64,000 bases of DNA from a bacterium. GTDB taxonomy: Bacteria > Cyanobacteriota > Sericytochromatia > S15B-MN24 > VGJW01. Within the stretch, counting starts at the first letter, position 1. Each line of letters opens with the position of its first letter. Shown here piece after piece: positions 4,853 through 29,475 of the stretch. The translations under genes and the position numbers were made by a program. A model generated the notes under the pieces. That model worked only from the letters and a program-made list of their open reading frames with translations. It was not told where the DNA came from and did not search any database. The DNA is taken from assembly GCA_021781555.1 (NCBI GenBank), contig JAJXWQ010000007.1:529-64528 (forward strand). Reading direction: 5' to 3'.

Positions 4853-6193
4853 ATGTCCATCACGGTCAACATAGCGAAGGACAAGCTCAGCGCGACAGTG
4901 CTCCTGACGGACGCCGAGGGGGTCACGGCTCTGGCGATCCGGCAGGCTCTCCAGGCGCGCGGCGTCACCTACGGCTACCTCGAGGACATCATCGAGCGGG
5001 TCGCAACCGCCTCGGCTGCTGGCGAATACGAGGTCGCAGTCGGGGATGCGCCCGTCCAGGGCTCGGACGCTTCGATCGAGTACTTCTTCCGCACCGGCAA
5101 GCCCAATCTGTCCCCGCAGATCCTCGACGACGGGCGCACCGACTACTTCAACCTCGGAGTGGTGCAGAACGTACAACCCGGCGACGTCCTGGCCCGCAAG
5201 ACCCCCGCCGTCCCGGGGATACCAGGCAAGTCGGTTACGGGGGACGACCTGCCGCCCCGGGTGGTCAAGGAGATCAACTTCCGGATCGGGCGCGGGGTCG
5301 AGCTTTCCCCCGACGCTCTCGAGGTGCGCGCCACCGACACCGGCCAGCCGCTCATGACCCGCGGGATCCTCTCGGTCTCGTCGACCTTCGTCGTGTCGGG
5401 AGACGTCGATTTCTCCGTGGGTAATGTCTTTTTCGAGGGCAATGTCGAGGTCCAGGGTACGGTCAGGACCCACTTCAACGTCCGCGCCAAGGGCAATATC
5501 ACCGTGCACGGGGCGGTCGAAGGCGGCATCCTCGAGGCCACGGGCTTCATCATGGTGGTCGGGGGCGTCCGTCAGCGCGCGGCCTTGCGAGCCGAGGGCG
5601 ACATCCAGGTTCGGTTCATGGAGAATTCGATCGCTCGCACGCCTGGCAACCTCTTCGTAAAGGACGACCTCTTGTTCAGCGAGGTCGACGTGGGGGGCAA
5701 GGTCGAGGTCACCGGATCGCTCGTCGGGGGGACCTGCAAGGCGGATGTAGAGGTGAAGGCCGACTGCATCGGCAGCAAGATGGGTACCCCCACACGGGTC
5801 GAACTCAACCCCCTCGAGAAGTGGCTGGAGGTGCTGCACGGCTTCCAGACCCGTCAGGCCGAGGTCAAGGGCAACGTCACGCGAATCGAAGAGGGGCTGA
5901 GCACCCTCGGCACGGCGAGAGAACGTTTCCACGGCCTGCACCCGGACAAGGACGCGCTCTACGATCGTTTGAGCCAGGCCTTGCAGGGATTGCAGCAGGA
6001 ATCCATCGAGCTTGCCGCCAAGGTCATGCAGGCCAAGGCCAAGGTCGAGTCGCTGCCCGAGCCCAAGATCATCGTGCGCGACCGGATCCACCCCGGGGTG
6101 CAGATTCGCCTCAACGAGGCTCGCCTCAACAACGAAGGCGAGCTCCTGGCCCGGGAGCTTTCCGAGAGCTCCGGCAAGATCAGGTTGCAGTAG
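4853..6193 (+). CDS. DUF342/FapA-family protein (flagellar assembly protein A-like, beta-helix)
   Basis: AGGAG 8 nt upstream. Central run of GNV/GDV beta-helix repeats (GDVDFSVGNVFFEGNVEVQGTVRTHFNVRAKGNITVHGAVEGG) and a C-terminal coiled coil, as in FapA/DUF342. Confidence 0.55.
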   Translation: MSITVNIAKDKLSATVLLTDAEGVTALAIRQALQARGVTYGYLEDIIERVATASAAGEYEVAVGDAPVQGSDASIEYFFRTGKPNLSPQILDDGRTDYFNLGVVQNVQPGDVLARKTPAVPGIPGKSVTGDDLPPRVVKEINFRIGRGVELSPDALEVRATDTGQPLMTRGILSVSSTFVVSGDVDFSVGNVFFEGNVEVQGTVRTHFNVRAKGNITVHGAVEGGILEATGFIMVVGGVRQRAALRAEGDIQVRFMENSIARTPGNLFVKDDLLFSEVDVGGKVEVTGSLVGGTCKADVEVKADCIGSKMGTPTRVELNPLEKWLEVLHGFQTRQAEVKGNVTRIEEGLSTLGTARERFHGLHPDKDALYDRLSQALQGLQQESIELAAKVMQAKAKVESLPEPKIIVRDRIHPGVQIRLNEARLNNEGELLARELSESSGKIRLQ

Positions 6194-9016: not shown

Positions 9017-9055
9017 TAAACCTCACGCCAGGACTTGCCGCGGGCTGGCCACCGG

Positions 9056-10438
9056 ATGAACGGTCGCTCGGTCTGCGGGTATGATTCCGGGCAGGAGGAA
9101 GGCACGCTGTCACCCGACGTACTGGTCAAGCGTGAGGTTCGCTGCCCGCTATGCGGCAAGGACTTCCGCCACTGGTCGCCCAGGAGCGGCACCTATAGCC
9201 TGATCCGGCGTGACAGCGATTTCTGCCCTCACTACCATGGCACCAATCCCACGCTCTACCAGGTCTACGTCTGCCCCGGCTGCAACTTCGCAGCCTATCG
9301 CCCGGATTTCAGCAACCTCGAGGAGAGCTCGCGCGCTGCCATTGTCTCGGCGCTGGGTCGGGTCAGGCACGAAGGAGCGGTCGATTTCTCGCAGCCAGAG
9401 CGCTCGCTCTTCGCGGCCTTGCGGAGCTTCGAACTCGCGCGGATCTCGGCCGAGGCGCGCAGGTCTCCGCCCGAGGTCCAGGCCAGTCTGATCCACCGTG
9501 CCGCCTGGATTTGCCGTTACGCCGAGGAGTTGGGGCGCGAGGTGCGCTACCTGGGTAGGGCCCGCGATCTTTACCAGGCTGCCTTCGATCGCGGCGTGGC
9601 CAGAGAGCGCCAAACCAACGATCTCGCGGTCGCATATCTGGTGGGCGAGCTCATGCTAAGGACCGGCAGAATTCCGGAGGCGCAGCCCTATCTCCTCCTG
9701 GTAGCCAACGCGAGCGACGCCAAGGCGTCGCTGGTGCGCTCGGCCAAAGACCGGTTGTACGATTCCAAGCAGGCGGCTCAGATCCAGCGCCTCCTGGAGA
9801 CCATCACCCTCTTCCACCCGATCGCCCACCTGGTCGGTCTGATCGCCGCGCACAGCGAGCGTAGATCGATCGGCCCGGGGGGAATCTTGTGTCGCAAGGG
9901 CGAACCCGGGCTCTCGATGTTCGTCGTGGCGGCCGGCGAGGCGGAGGTCTATCTCGGCGATCCGGCCGACTCGGATCCGGTCGCCATCGTGGGCCCAGGC
10001 GAGACCCTGGGCGAGATGAGCTTGTTCCTCGCGGCACCGCGGTCGGCGACGATTTTGGCTCGACCTGCCCGCACGGGACCCATGGCGGTAGCCCTCGAGA
10101 TCATCGAGATTCCCAGGACCGCCTTCCGCAATCTACTCAAGCTCGACGCCGGGGTCGTGGCGGCGATCTCCGAGACGATCGCCCGGCGCCAGCGCGAGAA
10201 CGCCCACTGGCTCGAGGAGCTCGAAATGGCGGCCGACACCCACGGCCAGCTGGAGATCCCGCTGCCCGTCTCGCAGTCTCCCGGCGGCTTGCAGTCGCTC
10301 ATCTTGCCCAAGGTCCGGCGATTCTTCGGCTTGGGCGCGGATCACGAGGCTGCCGAGGCCGTGGCCGACCAGGGGTTGGATGGGGCGGATCCACCATCGC
10401 TCGCGCCCGGCCCGGACGCCGAGGAGCTCGCAACCTGA
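9056..10438 (+). CDS. DUF2225 zinc-ribbon domain fused to a cyclic-nucleotide-binding (CAP-family) domain
   Basis: N-terminus CPLCGKDF...CPHYHGTNP..YVCPGCNFAAY matches the DUF2225 pattern. C-terminus GPGETLGEMSLF...RSATILAR is a cNMP-binding signature. The ORF-track frame opens at TTG 9035; I chose ATG 9056. Start uncertain. Confidence 0.6.
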   Translation: MNGRSVCGYDSGQEEGTLSPDVLVKREVRCPLCGKDFRHWSPRSGTYSLIRRDSDFCPHYHGTNPTLYQVYVCPGCNFAAYRPDFSNLEESSRAAIVSALGRVRHEGAVDFSQPERSLFAALRSFELARISAEARRSPPEVQASLIHRAAWICRYAEELGREVRYLGRARDLYQAAFDRGVARERQTNDLAVAYLVGELMLRTGRIPEAQPYLLLVANASDAKASLVRSAKDRLYDSKQAAQIQRLLETITLFHPIAHLVGLIAAHSERRSIGPGGILCRKGEPGLSMFVVAAGEAEVYLGDPADSDPVAIVGPGETLGEMSLFLAAPRSATILARPARTGPMAVALEIIEIPRTAFRNLLKLDAGVVAAISETIARRQRENAHWLEELEMAADTHGQLEIPLPVSQSPGGLQSLILPKVRRFFGLGADHEAAEAVADQGLDGADPPSLAPGPDAEELAT

Positions 10439-10525
10439 GCCCTCGGGCTCCGAGGTCGAGAGGGCTCTTGACCTTCTCCTCTCTCAACGGATTCGACGGG
10501 CCTCACCTCTGATACGCTCAGCGCC

Positions 10526-12154
10526 ATGGACGCGGCCGGAGAACGAAACGCGATTCGTTCACTCAGGATATTTTCGGATGTCGCCGCTTCGATCGCGCTG
10601 ATCTGTGGCGGCCTCGAGATCGCCGCCTGGATCCTGGACCTCCGGGGCCTCGAAGCCTCGGCCATGGCGCCCCTGGCGCAGGGCCCCGAGGCCGCCACAG
10701 GCCTGCTCCTCGTGGGAGCCGCCCTCATCGTGGCGGGCAGGAACTTCCCGGGCGCCCGGATCGCCTGGCAGCTTTTGGCACTGATGGCGATGACCTTCGG
10801 CACCGCGCTGTCCGTCCGCGGGCTCGGAAGGATCGACGTCGGGCTGGGGCACTTGTTCTCTCCCCATGCGGCCGCCGCGAACTTCACCTCGGCCCGGATG
10901 GCCCTGCCCACGGCCCTGGTGATCACGCTCCTCGGACTGGCCCTGCTGCTCAAGGGCCGGTCGCTGAGCCGAGCGGGGGACGCCCTGGGCACCATGGCCT
11001 TCCTGTTCCTTTACTTCGGGTTCCTCCACCAGGTCCTCAGGATCGAGTTCATGCGGGTGGAACCGCCGTTCAGGCAGGTGCCGCAGGCCTGGCTCCTCTG
11101 GATGCTGCTGAGCCTGGGGGTCACGGCGGTCCGATCGTCGCAATGGCTGGTCGACACCGCCCTGGGGCGAACGCTGACTGGCCTGATGGGGCGCCGCTTC
11201 CTGGCCGCCGTCCTCGTCACCCCGGCACTGTTGGGTTTGCTGTGGATCGTGGCGGTCAGGGCCAACGGCGTGACGCCGATCGAGCGGCTCATGACGGTCG
11301 CCCTCGGCTTCACCGCGCTCATCGTCGGCGTGATCGCCCTTGATGCCCGCCGCCTCGAACAGATCGAGACCGAGCGCGGTCGAGCCGAGGAAGCCTTGGC
11401 CATGAGCCAGGCCGAACTCAAGAAGGCAGCCGAGCTGGCCCAGCTCAAGGATTCCTTCCTCTCGACGGTATCCCACGAGATGCGCACTCCACTCTCGCTC
11501 ATCATGGGCTACGCCGAGCTTCTCGAGGACGTCTATCCCGGCGAAGAGCTCATCGCCGGGATTCAAGAAGGCACCCGAAGGCTCGCCGAGCACATCGAGC
11601 GGATCGTCGAGTACTCCGCCTTGCTCGGCGGTACCTTGCCCCTCTACCAGACGCCAGTAGACATGGCCGAACTGGCCCGCAACGTCGCCGAGGTCGAGCG
11701 GGCGCGGTTCAAGGGCAAGGATCTGACACTCACCGTCGAGGTGAGCGTCAAAACCCCCATCGTGCAGGGAGACTCGCGCCGGCTGACCGAGGTGCTCAAG
11801 GAGCTCCTCGACAACGCGATCAAGGTCACACCGCCCGGGCGCAAGGCCGGGATCCGGGTCGGACCCGAGGGCGACAAGCTGCGAATCGACGTCTGGGACA
11901 GCGGGCCCGGGATCGGCGAGTCCGAGATCGCGCGTCTCTGGGAGGCCTTCGGGCAGCTCGAGGCGGGAGATTCCGCCCGGCGCGGCGGCCTGGGGCTCGG
12001 GCTCCCGATCTCCAGAAAGCTGATCGAACTCCACGGCGGCACGCTCGCCGTGGCGAGCCAGCCCGGCGAGGGGAGCACGTTCACGGTGCTGCTGCCGGCC
12101 TTCGGAACCGAGACTACGGACGCCGGTCCGGAACTCCCGGGTTCGCCTACGTGA
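10526..12154 (+). CDS. membrane sensor histidine kinase
   Basis: Several TM helices, HisKA H-box (SHEMRTPLSLIMGYAELL) and HATPase_c G-boxes (DSGPGIGE, GLGLGLPISRKL). Confidence 0.85.
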   Translation: MDAAGERNAIRSLRIFSDVAASIALICGGLEIAAWILDLRGLEASAMAPLAQGPEAATGLLLVGAALIVAGRNFPGARIAWQLLALMAMTFGTALSVRGLGRIDVGLGHLFSPHAAAANFTSARMALPTALVITLLGLALLLKGRSLSRAGDALGTMAFLFLYFGFLHQVLRIEFMRVEPPFRQVPQAWLLWMLLSLGVTAVRSSQWLVDTALGRTLTGLMGRRFLAAVLVTPALLGLLWIVAVRANGVTPIERLMTVALGFTALIVGVIALDARRLEQIETERGRAEEALAMSQAELKKAAELAQLKDSFLSTVSHEMRTPLSLIMGYAELLEDVYPGEELIAGIQEGTRRLAEHIERIVEYSALLGGTLPLYQTPVDMAELARNVAEVERARFKGKDLTLTVEVSVKTPIVQGDSRRLTEVLKELLDNAIKVTPPGRKAGIRVGPEGDKLRIDVWDSGPGIGESEIARLWEAFGQLEAGDSARRGGLGLGLPISRKLIELHGGTLAVASQPGEGSTFTVLLPAFGTETTDAGPELPGSPT

Positions 12155-13484
12155 ACATGGCCGCAGCGCTCGTCGTCGACCCGAGCATCCGCAACTGGCG
12201 GACGGTCTCGTCGAAGGGCGTGTTGTCCCGGACGTCCTGCTTGAGATAGCCCTTGATCTGGTCCCACATCGAGATGGCACGGTCAAAGGCGGGGTTGCTC
12301 CCCCTGACGTAAGCCCCGACGTTGAGCAGATCCTGGACCTCCTTGTAATCGGCGATCATCTGGAAGACGGCCTGGCGTGCCTGCTTGTGTTCCTTGGTAG
12401 CCAGGATATCCAGCAGACGGGAAACGCTCTGTAGCACGTCGATCGCCGGGAAGATGCCCTGCGCCGCGATCGATCGCAGCATGACGATGTGGCCGTCGAG
12501 GATGCCGCGGACGGTGTCGGCGATCGGCTCGTCCATGTCGCCGCCATCGACCAGCACCGTGTAGATCCCGGTGATCGAACCTTTGTCACTGGTACCCGCC
12601 CGCTCGAGGAGCTTGGGGATGAGCGAGAAAACCGACGGCGTGTACCCCTTCTGCGCGGGCGGTTCGCCGATCGCCAGGCCGATCTCGCGCATCGCCATCG
12701 CAAAACGCGTCATCGAGTCCATCATCAAGAAGACCTTGTTGCCCTGATCGCGGAAGTACTCGGCGATGGAGGTAGCTACCAGCGGCGCCTTGAACCGCAT
12801 CAAGCTGGAGGTATCGCTCGTCGCAACCACCACGACCGAACGTCTCAAGCCTTCCTCGCCCAGGGAGTACTCGAGAAATTCCCGGACCTCGCGCCCGCGC
12901 TCTCCGACCAGGCAGAGCACGGATAGATCCGCCTTGGCCTGGCGGGCGATCTGGCCGAGCAAGGTGCTCTTGCCCACTCCCGATCCGGCGAAGATCCCGA
13001 TACGCTGGCCCTCGCCCAGGGTCAAAAAGCCGTCCATCACGCGCACGCCGGTCGGGAGAACCGTGTCGATGAGCCGCCGTGTCATCGAGTTGGGGGGAGC
13101 GTTCATCTGCGGCGTCGTCGTCTCGTACAGGAGCGGACCCTTGCCGTCGATGGGGTTGCCGAGACCGTCCAGCACGCGGCCGAGGAGCTTGGGCCCGACC
13201 TTGACGCTGACCATCCGCCCGGTCGCCACGACCTCGCAGCCCGCCCCGATGCCCTCCATCTCGGAAAGAGGCATCAGCATGACGCGCCGCGGCTTGAAGC
13301 CGACGACCTCGCACGGAAAGACCAGCTTGCGATCCTGCGAGTAGATGTGGCAAAGCTCTCCGTAACGCACGCCTTGCAACTGCGCCTCGATGACCAGGCC
13401 CACGAGCTGCACGACGATTCCCCGGGCTCGCACCGGCTCGGTATCCCGCAACGCGAGGGCGTAGGGCTCGAGAGAGATGTTCAC
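12147..13484 (-). CDS. fliI: FliI/YscN-family type III secretion ATPase
   Basis: Walker A GSGVGKST and a T3SS-ATPase N-domain. GTG start with AAGAGG upstream. Stop overlaps the convergent HK stop (CTACGTGA). Confidence 0.9.
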   Translation of the reverse strand: MNISLEPYALALRDTEPVRARGIVVQLVGLVIEAQLQGVRYGELCHIYSQDRKLVFPCEVVGFKPRRVMLMPLSEMEGIGAGCEVVATGRMVSVKVGPKLLGRVLDGLGNPIDGKGPLLYETTTPQMNAPPNSMTRRLIDTVLPTGVRVMDGFLTLGEGQRIGIFAGSGVGKSTLLGQIARQAKADLSVLCLVGERGREVREFLEYSLGEEGLRRSVVVVATSDTSSLMRFKAPLVATSIAEYFRDQGNKVFLMMDSMTRFAMAMREIGLAIGEPPAQKGYTPSVFSLIPKLLERAGTSDKGSITGIYTVLVDGGDMDEPIADTVRGILDGHIVMLRSIAAQGIFPAIDVLQSVSRLLDILATKEHKQARQAVFQMIADYKEVQDLLNVGAYVRGSNPAFDRAISMWDQIKGYLKQDVRDNTPFDETVRQLRMLGSTTSAAAMFT

Positions 13485-13514: not shown

Positions 13515-14900
13515 CTACTGGTTGAGGTCCTCGAAGGCCTGCGACTCGGCATCGTCGACCTCGGAGAGCTCCCGCTGCACGTTCTGGAAGACCTCCTGCA
13601 AGACCGAGAGCTGGGTCTTGATGGTCGCATCCACCGTGCCCGATCCGGTCTCGATGAAGACGCCGCCCCGCTGGATCTTGTTGGACGCCTGGAACTCGAG
13701 ATGCTTGACCTGAGCCAGCATGTCCCGGAATCGATCCTCCTGGGCCTGAACCTGGGGCAGATCCTCGGTATTGACCCGCACCACGACGCGCTCCAGGTCC
13801 GTGACCCGGGTCAGCGCCTCGTCGAGGACCGACAGCACGATCTCGGGCTTGGCCGAGATCTCGTCGCAGACGATCTTTTCGGCCACGCTCATGGCGAGCT
13901 GGATGAGTTTCCTCGAGTTCTCCCGCGCTGCCTGTGGATAAGCTAGCCGAGCGCGATTGAGGGTCTCGATCGCCTCTTCGATGATCTTGGCGCCTTCCTC
14001 GTCGGCCTGCGCCCGGCCCTCGGTGTAGCCAGCCGCTCGGGCCGCCTCCACCATCTGTTCGTAGCGCTCGGACCGGGAGCGCTCGAAGTCCTCGAAGGCC
14101 TGGGCGATCTGGTTCTGCGCATCGGCCCGGGCCTCGGCTGCCGCGATCTGGGCCTCGCCGACGATCCGCTCCGCCTCGAGACGAGCCTCGGCGAGCAGCC
14201 GCTCGCGTTCGGCCAGCAGCCGCTTGCCGGCATTCTCCTTGAGCTCGAAGCCGTCGAGCAGCGCGGCGATCTGCTCCTCGGCGCTGGCGAGCTCGCGCCA
14301 ACGCGCCCGCGAGGCGGCCCGCGCCGCCTCGAACTCGGCCGCCGCCGCCGCCTGCTGCTCCAGAGTCGGCACCAGCGCATCGACCGCACTGCCGAGCTGC
14401 TGGGGATCCGCGCCGAGAGCCTCGGACAGACGTTGGGTCGCAGCCTCGAGCAGAGCCGAGAAGGTACCCTCGGGATCGGGGGCCTGATTGGCGGCCTCCT
14501 CGGCTCCGGCCTGGGCAGCGGCTTCGGCGGCGGTCAGGATCTCCTGCCTGGCGCCCTCGAACCCCGCCAACCAATCCCCATCCGCCTCGAGGGCCGCGTC
14601 GAGTCCGGCCGCGGCTCCCCCCGGCGCCGGCTCTGCAACGCCAGCCCCGGCGCTCGCTACGGGATCGACGGGACGAGCCGGGGCCTCGGGTCCTGGCGAC
14701 TCCGGCTGCAGCGGCACGATGTCGAGGTCCGATTCGGCCATCGGCACGACCCGCTCGGCCCTGCGCAGCCCGCTCTCGGGGGCGTCGACTCGCCGGCGCA
14801 CACGGCCCGGACGGCCTTCGCCCTCGTCGGCGATAACCTGGTCGCCGGCGACCACGACCGACCCGCCCTGGTCGACCTTGCTACCCTTTATCAGCGCCAC
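13515..14900 (-). CDS. fliH: FliH/YscL-family ATPase regulator with a ~200-aa Ala/Glu/Pro-rich N-terminal extension
   Basis: C-terminal 260 aa match FliH (coiled coil, then ...RGGVFIETGSGTVDATIKTQL). 30-bp gap to fliI. Annotated start is a GTG without a clear SD. Start uncertain. Confidence 0.65.
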   Translation of the reverse strand: MALIKGSKVDQGGSVVVAGDQVIADEGEGRPGRVRRRVDAPESGLRRAERVVPMAESDLDIVPLQPESPGPEAPARPVDPVASAGAGVAEPAPGGAAAGLDAALEADGDWLAGFEGARQEILTAAEAAAQAGAEEAANQAPDPEGTFSALLEAATQRLSEALGADPQQLGSAVDALVPTLEQQAAAAAEFEAARAASRARWRELASAEEQIAALLDGFELKENAGKRLLAERERLLAEARLEAERIVGEAQIAAAEARADAQNQIAQAFEDFERSRSERYEQMVEAARAAGYTEGRAQADEEGAKIIEEAIETLNRARLAYPQAARENSRKLIQLAMSVAEKIVCDEISAKPEIVLSVLDEALTRVTDLERVVVRVNTEDLPQVQAQEDRFRDMLAQVKHLEFQASNKIQRGGVFIETGSGTVDATIKTQLSVLQEVFQNVQRELSEVDDAESQAFEDLNQ

Positions 14901-15038
14901 GATCGAACTATACCCGTCAAAGAGCGGCCATGCGAGGTGCTGGATGTCGAAGTCGGCGCCAGGCGCGGCCTGTCGTCGCGATCCTCGGGGCAGCGCCCCC
15001 TCTCGAGCTCCTGCCAGCTAACCCAGAGCAGCCAAGCC

Positions 15039-15278
15039 TCAGGCCAGGTCCTCGATCTGGCTCAGCAGATCCTCGAACGAGGCGAAACCCTCACAGTCGC
15101 CGCAACGCAGCAGGATCACGCGCAGCTTTTCGGTGTGGCCATGGCGGAACTCGACCTCGCGCTCTCCGCGCTCGAGGACCAGCTTTTCCCGGCTCACCGG
15201 AAAATGGACTCCCTCCGTGGCCTGCATCAGCGCCGCAACTCCGAAGCGCCGGGGATGTTCACCTGTAGCGTCTGCCAT
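15039..15278 (-). CDS. DUF2795-like small protein
   Basis: GVHFPVSREKLV ... FASFEDLLSQI resembles the DUF2795 pattern (VDYPASK.DLV ... P..Y.SP.DV). 79 aa. Confidence 0.45.
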   Translation of the reverse strand: MADATGEHPRRFGVAALMQATEGVHFPVSREKLVLERGEREVEFRHGHTEKLRVILLRCGDCEGFASFEDLLSQIEDLA

Positions 15279-15354
15279 GGCTTTACCCTCCCGAGCTGAG
15301 CCTATCTCAGTCGGCCTTCCGTGTCTGGCCCGGCGCCAGCTCGCACGGGCTGCT

Positions 15355-22423: not shown

Positions 22424-22648
22424 CTACTCCTTGTGGAAGGAGCGGACCGCCTGCGAGACGTCGTCCATCAACTTCTTGAGCATGTCGAGACGAGTCTCCA
22501 TGTCGAGCATGTAGGCCTGGAATTCATCCGGCGTGTAGCCGCCACTGCCGACGTTCGCGGCCTTGGTCTGGATGTCCTTCAGCAGGTTCTGCACACCCTG
22601 GGAGATGGTCTCCATCGTGCTTACGCCTTGGACATGAATCGAACCCAT
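22424..22648 (-). CDS. small helical hypothetical protein (74 aa)
   Basis: ATG preceded by AAAGGAAAGAACG. Helical, acidic. Sits between the regulator and the GT pair. Confidence 0.4.
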   Translation of the reverse strand: MGSIHVQGVSTMETISQGVQNLLKDIQTKAANVGSGGYTPDEFQAYMLDMETRLDMLKKLMDDVSQAVRSFHKE

Positions 22649-22696
22649 CGTTCTTTCCTTTCTTGACTGAACGCTCCCGACCCACCGCGGTCGCAC

Positions 22697-22811
22697 GTTC
22701 TCAACCTTCTGACACCGAACTTATCCACCAGGGAGGGGAGGTCTTGCAGGACTTAACCTAGAATAAAAGCTCCTCCGCAATGATTTAACTGCATCTCGAC
22801 AGCTAGCCAAC
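22697..22811 (-). promoter_or_regulatory. AT-rich intergenic segment (probable promoter of the small-protein/GT genes)
   Basis: Sharp local GC drop (..ctagaataaaagctcctccgcaatgatttaactgcatctcg..) in an otherwise GC-rich region. Confidence 0.3.
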
Positions 22812-25800
22812 TCACTTAAGCGACCCTCTAAGGATCTGCAGATGCAGCTCGATCGTCTCGGAATCCGGGCCGATGCCTATCTCCTGCTTCATGATACGCT
22901 CGACGAGCTTGAAGTGTTTGAGTGCGTCCTCCCGACGCCCCATCCGGCCCAGTGCCCGCATCTTGGCGCGATGCGCCTCCTGGGCGGTGCGATCGAGCTG
23001 GATCTGGCGATCGGCGAGGTCCAGGACGGCACCGTGCTGCCCGGCCGCTTCGAGCGCCTGGGAGAGCTCGAGGAAGACCCAGCTGGCGTCCCGCCGGAAC
23101 CGCTCCCGCTCGGCCTCCACCCAGGGTTCCTCGAACTCGACCAGGAACGGTCCGCCGTACAGATCCAGCGCCTGCCGCAGGTGGAGCTGACGCTCGGCGC
23201 CTTCGGATTGTCTGGCCTGTCCGACCTGGAAGGAGAAATCTGCGGTGTCGATCCGGTGCCGGAGAGCAAAGTTGAACCGATAGCGTCCGTCCTGGAAGAG
23301 GATGAATCGACTCGAGGCGTTGCGCTCGAGGCCCGGCTCGAGCGCGGCCCGGAGGCGGGCGATCAAGACATGGAGGGCGCTCGCCTTGGTATCGCCCGCA
23401 AAGAAGATCTCCACGAGTTCTTCCTTGCCCGAGCCATGGCGGCTGGTCAACAGATGCGCCAACAGGAGCTTGGCCTTGGCCGCACGCCAGGCGCTCTGAG
23501 CGACCTGCTTGCCGTCGACCTTGACGCGCATGCGCCCAAACAGCGAGCCCTCCAGGGCCAGGTCCGGAGCGCGAGCGGCGGCGATCCGGCCATCCTCGGA
23601 AGTCTCCAGCCAGCTGAACTGGTACTGGCGGGCCAGTTTGCGAGCGCTTTCCGCGGCTTCGCGGGCTCGCTCCGCCTTGCCCTGAGCGGACAGCAGGCGG
23701 GCCTGCAGGAAGCGTGCGCGGGTGAGGTCATAGCGAAGATCACGCCGATCGAGAACCGGAATGAGCTCGCCCAGCGCGGCGTCTGCGCCCTCGAGCGCCC
23801 CCTCCGACAGCGCGACGGCGATCTCCGCCAGGCTCTCGGCGGGTGGCGTGTCGGACAGGCGCCTGCCCCCCGCTGCAGCTGCCGCCCCCACGGCGCCGCC
23901 GGCCAGAGAGCTCGTCTGCGAGCGGCGGCGATCGCCCTCGTGATGCACGCGGAGGGATTGCCGGAAGCTGCGGGCCTCGTCGAGAAAGCCCCGCGCCTCC
24001 GCGGAATGCGCCTGGGCCAGGGCGAGCTCGGCGCGATCGATCTGGGCCATGGAGAAAAGAACCGGATCCGCGAGCTGGCCGGCCAGGGCCGCCGCCTCCG
24101 CCAGGAGCGTCTGGGCTTGCTGGAACTGGCCGGTGATACGGCCGATATGCCCGAGCGCTGCCAGCGCCTCGGTCTCGGCCAGGCCATCGCCGACCTGGCG
24201 AGCCTCGGCAACCGCCTGCTCGGCCAGTTCCCAGGCCGCGGTGGTCTCGCCGCGAGTCGCGCGGACCCTGGCCGCAGCGGCCCCCGCCTCCGCAGGGGGT
24301 ATGCGCCCGGCTCCACGCGCGGCCGCCCGGGCCTCGTCGAGGGCTGCCAGAGCCCGTTCGAACTGACCTCCCGTGGCCAGAACCCGGCCGAGGTGCGTAC
24401 TTACCCGCGCCAGCCCACCGGCATCGCCCACGCGCCGATACAGGCTCGCGGACTCGCCAAGGTACGTCGCGGCGGGGCCGAGATCGCCCTCGCGCAGATG
24501 ATGCAGGCCCAGCTGATCGTAGGCGAAGGCCTTGAGGCCGAGATCGTCCGCAGGAGCCATGTCGAGAGCCGCCTGCGCGGCCATTGCCCCCTTGCCCGCG
24601 GCCGCAGACAATGCGAGGGCCCACACGGCCGATCGCGCGTCCCCCACGGCCTTGGCGAGGATGCCGGCCCGGTCATAGCAGGCCTGCGCCTCGGCCATCT
24701 TCCCTGCGTGGCGGGCGATCTCTCCCTCGAGCAGCGCGACCCGGCAGGATCCCTCGCGCCACGAACCGGGGATCCGATCGAGCCAGCGCTGGACGCCCGC
24801 ACTGCGGCCCTGCCCGAGCATTCCGTCGGCCAGCTGGACGATCCGGGCCTCCGCCTCCGCCCAGGCGCCCGCCGCCAGCCAGTGGTCGACGGCGGCTTCG
24901 GGATCGTCCTTGACGATCGCCGACGCCACTCCCAGATGGAAGGCGCGCAAGCGCTCCGCTGGCCACGTACGAGCTGCGGCATCCTGGAGAGCGGCCTTGA
25001 ACAGCGGATGGAAGACATAGCCGTCCGGCCCCTTGGACAGCAAGAACCCCTGGGCGGCCAGGGCGTCGAGCTGCCCCAGGGCCTCGGGTGCCGTGAGCAA
25101 GGGAATGAGCGCCGCGGCCCCCCCGGGCAGGAGCGCGCAGGCCAGCAGGTCCTCCCTGGCATCGGCAGGAAGGTCATAGAGCACCTGATGGCTGATGTAC
25201 TCGTGGAGCGGCTCGTCGGCGTGGAGTGCGGCAACGTCCGCTCGCGCCCCCATGGAGACACCGGCGGGCCAGCCTGCGGTACGCTCGTGCAGCGCCGTGC
25301 CGATCGCCGGATCTCCGCCAGCCAACCGGACCAGACCGGCGGTCTGGTCCACCGAAAACCGCAACTGCTCGGGGCCGATCTCGAGGTCGGCCACCAGGTC
25401 GGGCCGGCCTCGGGCCGAGATCCACAACCGGCCGGGCCAGTACTCGACCAGGCGCTCGACCACCTCGGACGGCAAAACATCCGCTCCGTCGAGCACGACC
25501 AGAAGGTTCGCGCACAGCTCCGCGACCTCCTCGGTGAGCCGCGCCAGGACGGGCTCGGCGGCGAACTCTGGATCGGCGGAGGCGAGTTGCTCACCAGGCA
25601 GGGCCGAGAGGGACGGCAGCGCCTGTTCCACGCCGGCGACCAGGTGCGAGAGGAAAACGAAGGGAGAGGAGTCGGCGGACTCCAGCGACAACCAGACGCC
25701 TGCCGGCCCGCCCCGAAGCCCTGCAGCTGAAACCGATCGGGCAAACGCGTCGGCCAGCAGCAGGCTCTTGCCGTAGCCGGGCCCGCCCCACACCGTCGCG

Positions 25801-25916
25801 ATCCGAGCGTTCTCCAGCGCACCGACGGCGTCTTCCCGCCGCAGGTACGCCGCCGGGAGAGCCGGCGGCACGAACTTGCGCGAGAGGATCGGGACCAGGG
25901 CCACGCCCGATTTCAT
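22812..25916 (-). CDS. large STAND/AAA ATPase - TPR - C-terminal OmpR-type wHTH + BTAD (SARP-like) transcriptional regulator
   Basis: Walker A VWGGPGYGKSLL near the N-terminus, a long TPR-like helical middle and a C-terminal trans_reg_C-like segment (LLAHLLTSRHG...LHVLIARLRAAL...RYRFNF) followed by BTAD. Confidence 0.75.
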   Translation of the reverse strand: MKSGVALVPILSRKFVPPALPAAYLRREDAVGALENARIATVWGGPGYGKSLLLADAFARSVSAAGLRGGPAGVWLSLESADSSPFVFLSHLVAGVEQALPSLSALPGEQLASADPEFAAEPVLARLTEEVAELCANLLVVLDGADVLPSEVVERLVEYWPGRLWISARGRPDLVADLEIGPEQLRFSVDQTAGLVRLAGGDPAIGTALHERTAGWPAGVSMGARADVAALHADEPLHEYISHQVLYDLPADAREDLLACALLPGGAAALIPLLTAPEALGQLDALAAQGFLLSKGPDGYVFHPLFKAALQDAAARTWPAERLRAFHLGVASAIVKDDPEAAVDHWLAAGAWAEAEARIVQLADGMLGQGRSAGVQRWLDRIPGSWREGSCRVALLEGEIARHAGKMAEAQACYDRAGILAKAVGDARSAVWALALSAAAGKGAMAAQAALDMAPADDLGLKAFAYDQLGLHHLREGDLGPAATYLGESASLYRRVGDAGGLARVSTHLGRVLATGGQFERALAALDEARAAARGAGRIPPAEAGAAAARVRATRGETTAAWELAEQAVAEARQVGDGLAETEALAALGHIGRITGQFQQAQTLLAEAAALAGQLADPVLFSMAQIDRAELALAQAHSAEARGFLDEARSFRQSLRVHHEGDRRRSQTSSLAGGAVGAAAAAGGRRLSDTPPAESLAEIAVALSEGALEGADAALGELIPVLDRRDLRYDLTRARFLQARLLSAQGKAERAREAAESARKLARQYQFSWLETSEDGRIAAARAPDLALEGSLFGRMRVKVDGKQVAQSAWRAAKAKLLLAHLLTSRHGSGKEELVEIFFAGDTKASALHVLIARLRAALEPGLERNASSRFILFQDGRYRFNFALRHRIDTADFSFQVGQARQSEGAERQLHLRQALDLYGGPFLVEFEEPWVEAERERFRRDASWVFLELSQALEAAGQHGAVLDLADRQIQLDRTAQEAHRAKMRALGRMGRREDALKHFKLVERIMKQEIGIGPDSETIELHLQILRGSLK

Positions 25917-26246
25917 ACCCGGCGAAGAGCCTTTACTTCCTCTTAACAGCTTTTGAAAGCCCGATCATCCATCTATAGCGTGTGAGGTCGAGGAGCGCAG
26001 GCGGTTCAGCCGGCACCCTGAACCACCTGCGACCGACACCTCCTTCAACACGGTAAGAAACCAGCCGCGGGGCCAGCCGGCACCCTGACCCCGCGGCCGG
26101 TCCTCTTCCCGAAGACCCACCGGACGTAAAGTTTCCAGCGACCAGGTCCTGCTCTGTCGGCACCCAGAGAAGAGCCTGGCAACTGGGTGAGGGACCGAAC
26201 CGCGGCTTGGCCGGCACCCCAAGCCGAGGCTCGGAACCAGCAGAAG

Positions 26247-26327: not shown

Positions 26328-27782
26328 CTACGTCCGGGCGGGATCGGCCAGCGCCAGGATCGCCTCATCGAGCCGCGCCAGCGCTCGCTCCCGGCCCAGC
26401 CACTGCACCACCTCGAACATACCCGGCGAGACCGTAGAACCGGTGAGCGCCACGCGGACCGGCTGGATGACCGCCCCGAGCTTCACCCCGAACTCTGTCG
26501 CCAGCTGCCGGAATTGCGCCTCGATGGCATCGTGGCTCCAGTCTTCGAGCGCTCCGATGCGCACGGAGAGCGCAACCAGGATCGGCCGCTGGGCATCCGT
26601 GAGGAACTTGGCCCGGGCCTCGCCGTCCCACACGAGCGGGACGTCGAAATAAAAGCGCGCCTTGTCGGCCAGCTCGACCAGGGTGCGTGCCCGTTCGACC
26701 AGCGTGGACGCGATCCCTTCGAGTCGCTCCCCTGATTCGTCTGGACCGATCCAGCCCCGCTCCTCCCAGAGGGGGCGCACTCGCCGTGCCATCTCGGCGG
26801 GTCCGAGCCGGCGGATCCACTCCCCGTTCAGCCATTCGAGCTTGGCATAGTCGAAAACGCACGCGCTCTTGCCCACGCCGTCGAGGTCGAAAGCAGCCAC
26901 CAGCTCCTGGCGGCCAAAGATCTCCTCGTCGCCGTGAGCCCAACCCAGGCGGGCGATGTAGTTGACGAGAGCCTCGGGCAGGTAGCCGTCCGCGCGGAAT
27001 TGCTGGATGGAAACGGCCCCGTGGCGCTTGGACAGACGCTTCTTGTCGGGACCGAGGATCATGGGGATGTGTCCGAAGCGGGGAAGGCCAAGTCCGAGCG
27101 CCTCGTAGAGCAGGACCTGCTTGGGCGTGTTCGAGAGGTGATCGTCCCCGCGGATCACATGCGTGATGCCCATGGCCGCATCGTCGACGACGCATGCGAA
27201 GTTGTATGTCGGCACCCCATCGGCCTTGAGAATGATGAAATCGCCGATCTCCTTCCGCTCGAACCTGACCGAGCCGTGGATCAGGTCCTCGAGGTCGATC
27301 TCCCCGTCCTTCGGCGTGGCGAAGCGGATGGCATGGGGGCCCCCGGCCACCCGACGCTGGCGCTCGGCCGGGTCCAGCTCGGCGCAGCGGCAGTCGGTCC
27401 GGGCCGGTGTCTCGGGCTCGAGATCCTCGGTCGCCTCGACCTCGGCTCGCGGCGGGCAGAAGCACGGGTAGGCACGGCCGCTTGCAAGCAAGCGGTCCGC
27501 GGACTCGTGGTAGCTATCGAGGCGTTCCATCTGGTAATACGGGCCGTGAGGCCCCTCGATCCCCGGCCCTTCGTCCCACTCGAGCCCCAGCCAGGTCATC
27601 GCGTCGAGGATCGCATCGGTGTATGCCTGTGTGGACCGCTGGCGATCGGTGTCCTCGATGCGCAAGAGAAAGGCACCGCCGTGATGGCGCGCCAGGAGCC
27701 AGTTGAAGAGGGCGGTCCGGGCCCCGCCTACGTGCAAGAAACCGGTGGGAGAGGGCGCAAAGCGCAGGCGTACGGCGTTCAT
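26328..27782 (-). CDS. gltX: glutamate--tRNA ligase
   Basis: MNAVRLRFAPSPTGFLHVGGARTALFNWL (HIGH) and KLSKR (KMSKS). ORF trimmed to the ATG at 27782. Confidence 0.9.
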   Translation of the reverse strand: MNAVRLRFAPSPTGFLHVGGARTALFNWLLARHHGGAFLLRIEDTDRQRSTQAYTDAILDAMTWLGLEWDEGPGIEGPHGPYYQMERLDSYHESADRLLASGRAYPCFCPPRAEVEATEDLEPETPARTDCRCAELDPAERQRRVAGGPHAIRFATPKDGEIDLEDLIHGSVRFERKEIGDFIILKADGVPTYNFACVVDDAAMGITHVIRGDDHLSNTPKQVLLYEALGLGLPRFGHIPMILGPDKKRLSKRHGAVSIQQFRADGYLPEALVNYIARLGWAHGDEEIFGRQELVAAFDLDGVGKSACVFDYAKLEWLNGEWIRRLGPAEMARRVRPLWEERGWIGPDESGERLEGIASTLVERARTLVELADKARFYFDVPLVWDGEARAKFLTDAQRPILVALSVRIGALEDWSHDAIEAQFRQLATEFGVKLGAVIQPVRVALTGSTVSPGMFEVVQWLGRERALARLDEAILALADPART

Positions 27783-27867
27783 TTCCAGAATTCTACCAGC
27801 CTGGACGAACGCCGTTGGCCGGCATTGACGAGGCCAGACGGCCCATCGAGCGCTACGCTCGGCCGGT

Positions 27868-28545
27868 ATGTTGATCTCGACGACGGTTCGATGCGGCGTG
27901 GCGAGGCTGATCCTGGCCGCGGGCAGCCTCCTGCTTTCCGCGCCGCCCGCCGTTGCGGCAGGACCTCCCCCAGGGGTGCCGCAGGTCGGCGACACGCTCT
28001 CCTACGTCGTTTCGACGGGCGAGCGCGTCGTGGTCACGACCACCCGCGTGCGGCCGCGCGGGCGGGAATGGGTCGCGACGGAGCAGGAAACCGTGCGATC
28101 TCCCGGCGAAGAACCCAGGACCACGGCCATCTCGGTCATCCGGACCGCTGATGCCCTGGCCTTCGAGTTCGCGCCGCATGGCAGCGAGAGCCTCTCCCCG
28201 CTCGTGTACTTCTTTGCGCCCGCGCTGGTGCACGACTCGTGGCTGGCCCAGCGCGTCAGCTACGTGGACTCGCAGGGACAAAAAGTCGCCTACCAGGTGA
28301 TCGCCCGGGTAGCAGCGATCGAGACGGTGTCTTCACCTGCCGGCATTTTCGCGGGTTGCTGGCGCGTCGACTTTTCCAGTACGGCGAACCCGCGCGACCG
28401 CCTCGAGGCCTGGCTGAAGCCAGACCTCGGCATCGTGCGCACGCAGTCCGACGACCACGGGCGAGCGATCGTCACCGAGCTGACGGGCTTCCACCTGGTC
28501 AAGGATGCCGGTCGCCCCGGAAACTCCGGCCGCCCCTCCCACTGA
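27868..28545 (+). CDS. secreted hypothetical protein
   Basis: N-terminal signal peptide (LILAAGSLLLSAPPAVAA). No recognised domain. Competing antisense ORFs nearby. Confidence 0.4.
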   Translation: MLISTTVRCGVARLILAAGSLLLSAPPAVAAGPPPGVPQVGDTLSYVVSTGERVVVTTTRVRPRGREWVATEQETVRSPGEEPRTTAISVIRTADALAFEFAPHGSESLSPLVYFFAPALVHDSWLAQRVSYVDSQGQKVAYQVIARVAAIETVSSPAGIFAGCWRVDFSSTANPRDRLEAWLKPDLGIVRTQSDDHGRAIVTELTGFHLVKDAGRPGNSGRPSH

Positions 28546-28647
28546 CACGATCTTCGGTCGAACTGGACCAAGCGTCCGACCGATCGCCAATCCTAAGCTT
28601 GGGATGCGACCGTTCCAGCAAGAAACGCAGTCCGCCATGGAGGAGAT

Positions 28648-29475
28648 ATGCGGATCCTCATCATCGAATCCGATGCCCCGTGCGCCGAAGCGCTTGCCTT
28701 CACCCTCACGAACGCCGGCTACGAGGTCGAGCATGCCCTGACCGGGCGACAAGGCCTCCAGGTCATCGCGGACCAGGGGCCTCCCGACGGCGTGCTGGTG
28801 GGCCACCCCCTGGCCGATCAATCGGGCCTCGACGTCTGCCGCGCCATCCACGCGGAGAGCGATGCCGGACTCATCCTCGTGAGTTCTTGCACCCGCGAAG
28901 AGACGATACTCCGGGCCTTTGCAGCCGGTGTCGACGATGCCGTCGTGAAGCCCGTCCGCGTCGCGGAATTGACTGCGCGGCTCGGAGCCGTGCTGCGGCG
29001 CCGGCAGCTCAAGGGGGCCGGTGCCCCCTGCGGGATCGTGGAGCGCGGCCCGTTCCGGCTCAATTCCAATCGACTCGAGGCCACGGTTACCGGACGCCTT
29101 GCTCCGGTGCGCCTGACGCCCCTCGAGGCCAAGCTGCTGGGGCTCTTGATGCTCAACACCAACCAGGTGATGACAAAGGCGCGTCTCCAGGAGCTGATCT
29201 GGGGATACCAGAACGACTCGAGCGGCGATCTGCTCAAGACCCACGTTCGACACCTGCGCGTGAAGCTCGAGGCCACGCCATCGTCGCCCCGGTTCATCCA
29301 GACGATCAACGGCGTGGGCTATACCTTCGTGAGCCCGCGCCCCGCCGAGAGGGTCGAACTCGATGCGCCGGCGACGCCCGGGACCCTCCTGGCCGGCGTG
29401 CCAGCCGCGGCGGCACCAGGCCACCTGTCCGGCCTGCAGTCAGAGCCTCGCTCCCCGCTTCCGGCACCGGCTTGA
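28648..29475 (+). CDS. OmpR-family response regulator with Asp-less receiver (atypical)
   Basis: Receiver plus wHTH (LTPLEAKLLGLL...VGYTFV). The phospho-acceptor position aligns to Gly (PDGVLVGHPLAD vs canonical PDLVLLDLMLP). No adjacent kinase. Confidence 0.7.
   Translation: MRILIIESDAPCAEALAFTLTNAGYEVEHALTGRQGLQVIADQGPPDGVLVGHPLADQSGLDVCRAIHAESDAGLILVSSCTREETILRAFAAGVDDAVVKPVRVAELTARLGAVLRRRQLKGAGAPCGIVERGPFRLNSNRLEATVTGRLAPVRLTPLEAKLLGLLMLNTNQVMTKARLQELIWGYQNDSSGDLLKTHVRHLRVKLEATPSSPRFIQTINGVGYTFVSPRPAERVELDAPATPGTLLAGVPAAAAPGHLSGLQSEPRSPLPAPA

Follow-up and report, generated by a model that had tools for sequence, protein, structure and literature searches.

The DUF2225 fusion gene and its product

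A stretch of 64,000 nucleotides from a member of the Sericytochromatia (contig JAJXWQ010000007.1 of assembly GCA_021781555.1), the whole of which is from here on called the window, holds a gene for a soluble protein in which a DUF2225 domain is followed by a cyclic-nucleotide-binding (CNB) domain of the CAP type. This gene, below referred to as the fusion gene, is the last in a co-directional string with fapA and a gene for a protein combining CE4 polysaccharide deacetylase and DUF4015 domains, and the string converges on fliI and fliH with a histidine kinase gene in between (Table 1). An earlier examination of the window, made without database searches (the sequence-only reading), had proposed the fusion and had suggested that the fusion protein and the kinase together form a signalling input to the adjacent FliH/FliI cluster.

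Searches with hidden Markov models (HMMs) from Pfam bear out the fusion. The match to PF09986 (DUF2225) has an E-value of 4.8e-37 (128.2 bits against a cut-off of 21) and covers positions 1–209 of the 214 in the profile, and the match to PF00027 (cNMP_binding, for cyclic nucleotide monophosphate) has an E-value of 4.7e-13 (49.3 bits, cut-off 27.5). In public assemblies the gene starts with the ATG at 9056, a TTG at 9035 would give seven more residues, and approximately the first 20 residues of the protein are not conserved in the alignment and are predicted to be disordered in the AlphaFold model. A hydrophobicity scan of the protein found no transmembrane (TM) segment.

Alignment with relatives of the same domain order showed that Cys30, Cys33, Cys73 and Cys76 are invariant, with the spacing CxxC-39-CxxC in 32 of 32 proteins, and the same holds for the sequence RRDSDFCPHY between the two pairs. 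In the AlphaFold model each CxxC pair is placed in a beta-hairpin loop, as in zinc ribbons, and the four cysteines are regarded here as a putative zinc ribbon. The remainder of the domain is modelled as six to seven helices (N-terminal domain modelled alone, predicted local distance difference test score 91.2). Foldseek neighbours of the domain were generic tetratricopeptide repeat (TPR) proteins only, all at E ≥ 0.07 (TPR2A of Hop, the type III secretion system chaperone IpgC and the C-terminal lobe of SMYD), and TPR models of Pfam match within the DUF2225 domain of relatives. Among solved structures no sequence match to DUF2225 was found even at E ≤ 10, and no fold match beyond generic TPR. 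The model thus portrays the domain as a short TPR-like array with a zinc ribbon as its cap, and such an architecture would be typical for the binding of proteins or peptides.

The model of the CNB domain superposes on solved CNB domains (MloK1 with TMt 0.86 and a root mean square deviation of about 2.2 Å, and also PKA and PKG). Its phosphate-binding cassette, GEMSLFLAAPRSA, aligns residue for residue with the sequence GERALLYDEPRSA of PKG with Gly, Glu, Arg, Ser and Ala all in place, and these residues are kept throughout the close clade of the fusion protein. With the Gly-Glu...Arg-Ser-Ala signature intact the domain looks ligand-competent, as far as its sequence can tell, and the same signature fits both cAMP and cGMP, the Arg-Ser-Ala cassette being common to binders of either. 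Neither a failed DUF2225 match nor a loss of cassette residues, which would have spoken against the sequence-only reading, was thus observed.

The variable tail behind the CNB domain contains one short conserved motif, QSLILPKVRRFFGLG, with the consensus [QS]xxLxK[IV][RK]xFFG[LF] among fusion proteins. Its candidate roles are docking, perhaps as a peptide ligand of the TPR groove in the same molecule, and anchoring as an amphipathic segment. No helix-turn-helix (HTH) was matched by Pfam in the protein, and the CRP model of NCBIfam matches only positions 19–140 of its 214, at a score of 26.6 against a cut-off of 266.

Table 1. Position of the fusion gene, the parts of its product and the neighbouring genes in the window
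Feature	Position	Strand	Basis
DUF2225-cNMP fusion gene, 460 amino acids (aa), soluble	9056..10438	+	PF09986 and PF00027 Pfam matches; identical protein in public assemblies; no hydrophobic TM segment
DUF2225 domain, aa 23–232: putative zinc-ribbon beta domain, then about three TPR-like helical hairpins	9122..9751	+	Pfam, AlphaFold model of the N-terminal domain, Foldseek
Putative zinc ribbon, CPLC (aa 30–33) and CPGC (aa 73–76) around RRDSDFCPHY (aa 51–60)	9143..9283	+	Alignment, model
CNB beta-barrel, aa 270–362, followed by a long C-helix, aa 365–395	9863..10141	+	Pfam, alignment, model, fold match
Phosphate-binding cassette GEMSLFLAAPRSA (Gly319, Glu320, Arg329, Ser330, Ala331)	10010..10048	+	Alignment to PKG/PKA cassettes; family census
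Short conserved C-terminal motif QSLILPKVRRFFGLG in a disordered, variable tail	10292..10336	+	Alignment; low-confidence short helix, aa 416–423
fapA (DUF342), first gene of the co-directional string	4853..6193	+	Pfam, synteny
CE4 polysaccharide deacetylase with DUF4015 (glycosyl-hydrolase-like), 876 aa	6346..8976	+	Pfam, synteny
Orphan membrane histidine kinase, 542 aa, HisKA and HATPase_c	10526..12154	+	HMMs, motif search
fliI-type ATPase of type III export, running towards the plus-strand genes	12147..13484	-	TIGR01026, 582 bits (cut-off 379.5)
fliH, 461 aa, extended at the N-terminus by a long stretch of low complexity	13515..14900	-	PF02108, E 3e-18

Distribution of the fusion and other partners of DUF2225

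A word-indexed search of 5.8 billion proteins revealed about 15 proteins with the same domain order, all in metagenome-assembled genomes (MAGs) labelled Sericytochromatia or "Cyanobacteria bacterium", and one protein with the reverse order, from Clostridiales. When 1.84 billion cluster representatives were searched exhaustively, 18 matches at E ≤ 1e-30 were obtained; the representatives also included giant proteins of 1551–3779 amino acids with 9–16 tandem CNB domains (P0023, P0027 and P0030). A profile search started from the reverse-order proteins brought up a mass of unrelated cNMP proteins, with only two further members that were usable. When the 161 retrieved proteins were classed with HMMs built from the two halves of the fusion protein, 25 had DUF2225 followed by the cNMP-binding domain, 57 had the two domains in the opposite order and 69 contained DUF2225 alone or with other partners.

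The Glu and Arg of the cassette are kept in 20 of the 24 complete same-order proteins and in 35 of the 56 reverse-order proteins, the others being degenerate (about a third of the reverse-order proteins are without the Glu and/or the Arg). The pairing of DUF2225 with a cNMP-binding domain has thus arisen in both orders and exists beyond this locus. In a set of 35 of the longer DUF2225 proteins Pfam identified Response_reg in three, PilZ in one, GGDEF in one and a DegT aminotransferase in four. DUF2225 recurs beside classic signal-receiver domains and therefore behaves like an output or effector module.

Gene order and paralogues in Sericytochromatia

The genomic context was compared in about a dozen independent loci, collected by exact-protein look-ups and two collection scans and then searched with the neighbours in the window as queries. 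MAGs with the locus include GCA_027331485.1, GCA_021790035.1 and GCA_040960315.1 and the JAYKHS, JAYKGV, JAYKIS and VGJW assemblies. The order fapA, CE4/DUF4015 gene and fusion gene, converging on fliI-fliH and the genes behind them (for a 632-amino acid unknown protein, DUF58 and MoxR), is shared by the window clade and four Sericytochromatia/Tanganyikabacteria MAGs, and it is kept although the fusion protein is only 37–42% identical in L018–L021 and L031. When comparing the window with L018, the identity is 90% for FliI, 56% for the deacetylase, 46% for FapA, 43% for FliH and 38% for the fusion protein, making the fusion gene the fastest-evolving of the conserved block; FliI is 88–97% identical across the relatives. 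The CE4/DUF4015 gene always has fapA on one side and the fusion gene on the other, the latter at a distance of 79 nt in the window and of about 18–30 nt in L018–L021.

Between the fusion gene and fliI there is a slot of varying content. In the window and in L006 and L015 (fusion proteins 100% and 72% identical) it is occupied by the histidine kinase gene, in L008 (58%) it is empty and the fusion gene overlaps fliI by 8 nt, and in L004 and L018 (47% and 38%) it contains a gene for a Peptidase_C11 (clostripain-like) protein, in L004 together with a small open reading frame (ORF).

The fusion gene has several paralogues in genomes of Sericytochromatia (L012, L033, L035). A 72.7-kb contig from Lake Tanganyika holds two, one located after fapA-fapA-deacetylase and the other preceded by gltX and facing fliI-fliH. 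Another paralogue is placed between genes for a PfkB kinase and a GH1 glycosidase, and in the MAG DBS2-1.bin124 one is found directly upstream of a gene for a PAS-PAS-class III cyclase (L012, 6679–9934). The pair of deacetylase and fusion gene is kept even in a paralogue without the fliI neighbourhood (L033, L032).

In a rough neighbour-joining tree the window clade, the gltX/fliI clade, the cyclase-linked paralogue and the L018 clade form one group, and a second clade, linked to the deacetylase only (P0009, P0018, L032), has a degenerate cassette in which Arg-Ser-Ala is lost. Since the full arrangement from fapA through the fusion gene to fliI occurs on two separate branches, the window clade and the L018 clade, it is probably ancestral. 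The association of the fusion gene with fapA and fliI-fliH is deep, though not universal.

The histidine kinase and the overlapping stop codons

HMMs for HisKA and HATPase_c together with a motif search identified an H-box (SHEMRTPL) and N, G1 and G2 boxes in the kinase, which has approximately eight TM helices connected by short loops with no large periplasmic loop, and in which Pfam recognised no sensor domain. The sole response regulator in the window is an OmpR-type gene at 28597–29475, about 16 kb from the kinase. With no response regulator adjacent to it the kinase is an orphan by position, as had been claimed from the sequence alone.

The proposed pairing of the kinase with the fusion protein fared less well. 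The kinase was found only in the window and in the 72% identical relative (L006, L015) and is absent from L004, L008 and L018–L021, where the fusion gene and its other neighbours persist. This restriction to the closest relatives marks the gene as a recent, lineage-specific insertion, and the kinase was rejected as a conserved partner of the fusion protein. Within the window the two genes are on the same strand with a gap of 87 nt, in which no convincing terminator or structured RNA was found (the fold, with a z-score of -0.44, is no stabler than that of shuffled sequences), and in this lineage they are possibly co-transcribed.

The stop codon of the kinase gene overlaps that of fliI by 8 nt (12147–12154). 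This overlap, which had been noticed before, is real, but the kinase-free locus L008 shows that it has no special meaning, as there the fusion gene itself ends at the equivalent TGA with the same overlap. It arises because the complement of the conserved terminal Phe-Thr codons of fliI (TTC-ACN) contains TGA. The overlapping stops were consequently rejected as a meaningful device; they indicate tight packing and no regulatory function.

Other genes in the window

The G+C content of the window is about 67%, and in each stretch the G+C content by codon position clearly singles out one gene. Long antisense ORFs rich in G+C at the third position (13947–15299 and 22767–25730 on the plus strand, and others) overlap real genes such as fliH and are artefacts of this composition, not genes. 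An Rfam scan of the window found one tRNA only.

On the minus strand, between 12147 and 19459, genes for MoxR (AAA_3), DUF58, the 632-amino acid unknown protein, DUF5789, FliH and FliI are co-directional, in an order that is kept in the Sericytochromatia MAGs L004 and L018–L021. The product of fliI does not reach the cut-off of any FliI equivalog model, the best being FliI_clade2 with 592 against 629.8. FliH is unusually long, and its family match is confined to residues ~219–442, the first ~220 residues being rich in Ala, Glu and Pro and of low complexity. The two genes stand alone, with no further flagellar gene in the 64 kb or in ±10 kb of relatives, and the ATPase pair may not serve a flagellum at all.

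The CE4/DUF4015 protein has a two-activity logic as in PgaB, but its match to PgaB is weak and N-terminal only. The string of fapA, this gene and the fusion gene suggests a motility/matrix gene string.

Further away, at 22424–25964 on the minus strand, a gene for a 1050-amino acid AAA/TPR/BTAD (STAND-like) regulator adjoins an ORF of 98 amino acids with weak similarity to WXG100; a weakly WXG100-like ORF of 75 amino acids also precedes the fusion paralogue in L004 and L014. In the window 16 kb separate the fusion gene from a group consisting of gltX, a DUF3108-like gene and the OmpR-type regulator gene (26328–29475), and the same group is found directly upstream of the fliI-facing paralogue in the P0007 lineage (L004, 2000–6500). 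The difference between the two positions points to a rearrangement breakpoint at the fusion gene.

Possible function of the fusion protein

DUF2225 is seldom mentioned in the literature searched. It had been called uncharacterised in the sequence-only reading, and this is nearly so, the exception being a 2025 preprint on Spirochaetes in which phylogenetic profiling led to a DUF2225-family gene which species of spiral shape possess and non-spiral species lack (PMC12236494). Inactivation of this gene in Leptospira biflexa (LEPBIa0550, OG8135) reduced spreading in semisolid medium with growth and morphology unchanged, and complementation was partial (PMC12236494).

Our tentative preference, held at somewhat less than even confidence, is that the fusion protein is a cNMP-gated protein-interaction adaptor which probably feeds into flagellar assembly/export or surface behaviour. 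In this scheme cAMP or cGMP would bind the C-terminal CNB domain with its intact cassette, and the signal would travel along helices which in the model connect the CNB barrel, with nothing in between, to the final helix of the TPR part. Binding may then alter the partners of the N-terminal zinc-ribbon/TPR module, so that the output would be a protein-protein interaction module and neither a DNA-binding nor an enzymatic domain. The most likely target would be the flagellar assembly/export or surface-behaviour apparatus, because the fusion gene ends the fapA-CE4/DUF4015 string abutting fliI-fliH and because a DUF2225 gene is needed for normal motility in Leptospira. The PAS-PAS-class III cyclase encoded beside one paralogue is a local source of cNMP, which counts for the adaptor. 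The protein could thus be a cNMP counterpart of the PilZ proteins that couple c-di-GMP to flagella. Of the proposed signalling input to FliH/FliI, what stands is the position of the fusion gene by fliI-fliH, conserved across deep divergence, and what falls is the pairing with the kinase.

Several observations weigh against this assignment. The fusion gene and fliI are convergent and form no operon, and the junction between them tolerates insertions (kinase, peptidase, small ORF). The whole region, housekeeping genes included, is syntenic among close relatives, and part of the linkage to fliI may therefore be inherited gene order. No other flagellar genes were found within the 64-kb window or within ±10 kb of the related loci searched, and no cyclase, second kinase or second CNB protein within the window, so that a local cyclase is missing here. 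The paralogue between the PfkB kinase and GH1 glycosidase genes is without flagellar context. Outside Sericytochromatia there were no flagellar neighbours at the reverse-order loci of Clostridiales and Chloroflexi, nor beside stand-alone DUF2225 in the Clostridia (Paramaledivibacter) and UBA8530 loci. In the loci examined in Clostridia, Chloroflexi and UBA8530 a general flagellar linkage of DUF2225 was not found. The literature searched offered nothing usable on flagella in Sericytochromatia/Tanganyikabacteria.

The several contexts of the paralogues and the insertion-tolerant junction give real weight to the main rival, according to which the protein is a TPR adaptor of a general kind, regulated by cNMP and not tied specifically to flagella, the paralogues having partners of their own and the adjacency to fliI-fliH being inherited order. 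At least four contexts occur among the Sericytochromatia paralogues (fapA/deacetylase, fliI/fliH, PfkB-GH1 and PAS-cyclase), reverse-order and stand-alone relatives lack a flagellar context, and unrelated genes have been accepted in the slot before fliI. Such an adaptor is possible but doubtful when set against the adjacency to fliI, which has outlasted local rearrangements and is still seen where the fusion protein is 37% identical, the co-directional linkage to fapA, which is kept in three clades, and the motility evidence for the DUF2225 family in Leptospira (PMC12236494). It could also be thought that the fusion protein regulates the secreted CE4/DUF4015 enzyme encoded upstream, and thereby gives a cNMP input to matrix or biofilm through exopolysaccharide or cell wall. 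The fusion gene follows the deacetylase gene immediately on the same strand, with the short gaps given above, and the pair is retained in the paralogue away from fliI (L033, L032). We nevertheless consider this unlikely, as the deacetylase appears exported (it has an N-terminal hydrophobic segment and two polysaccharide-acting domains) and the fusion protein is cytoplasmic, which makes direct control of the enzyme improbable, and as the paralogue clade with linkage to the deacetylase only is the one with the degenerate cassette.

Another reading combines the fusion protein and the downstream kinase into a signalling pair, in which the cNMP-bound adaptor modulates an orphan kinase acting on flagellar genes. 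Their common strand, the 87-nt gap with no convincing terminator and a kinase without a partner regulator nearby would agree with this, but no relative below about 72% identity has the kinase, even though such relatives retain the fusion gene and the other neighbours. As a general mechanism the pair is largely refuted, and although it could still hold in the window lineage it is very unlikely. More improbable still is a role of the protein as a Pycsar-like effector against phages or as a transcription factor of the CRP type. PADLOC models for PycTIR/effector do match the fusion protein (E 7.6e-8), the cyclase beside one paralogue matches PycC, and one source names a relative "CRP-like cAMP-binding protein". 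The PADLOC matches, however, cover the CNB part only (4–144 of 288) with no TIR or TM effector domain, the 64-kb window is without a cyclase, and the L012 cyclase carries two PAS sensor domains, whereas for a CRP-like factor the HTH is missing and the NCBIfam CRP match stops at position 140 of 214. The defence and CRP-like readings were both rejected, as their defining features (an effector domain and a dedicated cyclase, and an HTH, respectively) are lacking.

Returning to the cNMP-gated adaptor, a bolder form of it would be that DUF2225 is a widespread, unrecognised second-messenger output module, and that in this lineage the cNMP-bound protein docks directly on FliH/FliI or FapA and switches flagellar assembly on or off. 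We hold this to be rather unlikely, but if true it would be the first post-translational control of the bacterial flagellum by cAMP or cGMP, similar to the c-di-GMP/PilZ brake, and would give a molecular function to DUF2225. Bacterial cyclic-nucleotide receptors with non-transcriptional outputs are poorly charted and DUF2225 is without an assigned function; here the locus offers a concrete hypothesis, namely a CNB domain that by its sequence appears ligand-competent on a predicted zinc-ribbon/TPR adaptor, with FapA, FliH and FliI as candidate partners. Taken with the Leptospira phenotype, the repeated fusion of DUF2225 to cNMP-binding, receiver, PilZ and GGDEF domains suggests a shared role in signalling output. 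The hypothesis also bears on the control of motility in Sericytochromatia, relatives of Cyanobacteria that do not photosynthesise and of whose behaviour next to nothing is known. In photosynthetic cyanobacteria motility is under the control of cAMP through a CRP-type factor.

Comparison with known systems

FapA of Vibrio vulnificus, a flagellar assembly protein, is recruited to the pole under glucose limitation, as cited in a later article (Park et al. 2019, Mol Microbiol 112:266, via PMC8789113). It belongs to the same family (DUF342) as the protein encoded at the head of the gene string in the window, and by that account ties flagellar assembly to nutrient (glucose) status; its relation to the fusion protein is one of genomic neighbourhood, not of homology. 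With DUF2225 proteins, of which LEPBIa0550 is a family member, the fusion protein shares the N-terminal domain of a putative four-cysteine zinc ribbon and TPR-like helices, matched by Pfam over its full length. Regulation by cNMP is not reported for the Leptospira member; the fusion protein carries a CNB domain and a conserved C-terminal motif.

The reverse-order proteins (P0010 from Clostridiales, P0034 from Chloroflexi) consist of the same two domains, with canonical cassettes in 35 of 56, but they are solitary or found in unrelated contexts (FecR/NHL, S1/ClpB), and their opposite domain order suggests an independent fusion.

PilZ-domain regulators such as YcgR and MotI/DgrA are small soluble c-di-GMP receptors that act post-translationally on the flagellar machine and are encoded near flagellar genes. 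The second-messenger logic proposed for the fusion protein near flagellar genes resembles theirs, and a fusion of DUF2225 with PilZ exists; the messenger c-di-GMP and the fold are different and the likeness is one of functional analogy, not homology.

With CRP, the regulatory subunit of PKA (PKA-R), PKG and MloK1/SthK the fusion protein shares the ligand-binding fold, the cassette Gly-Glu...Arg-Ser/Thr-Ala and the principle of a modular, ligand-controlled switch. In these proteins the output is an HTH, a kinase-inhibitor segment or a channel, while in the fusion protein it would be a zinc-ribbon/TPR module placed N-terminal to the CNB domain. The protein would in this respect be a CNB receptor with a non-enzymatic, non-DNA-binding output, of a domain pair that is already present in the databases in both orders.

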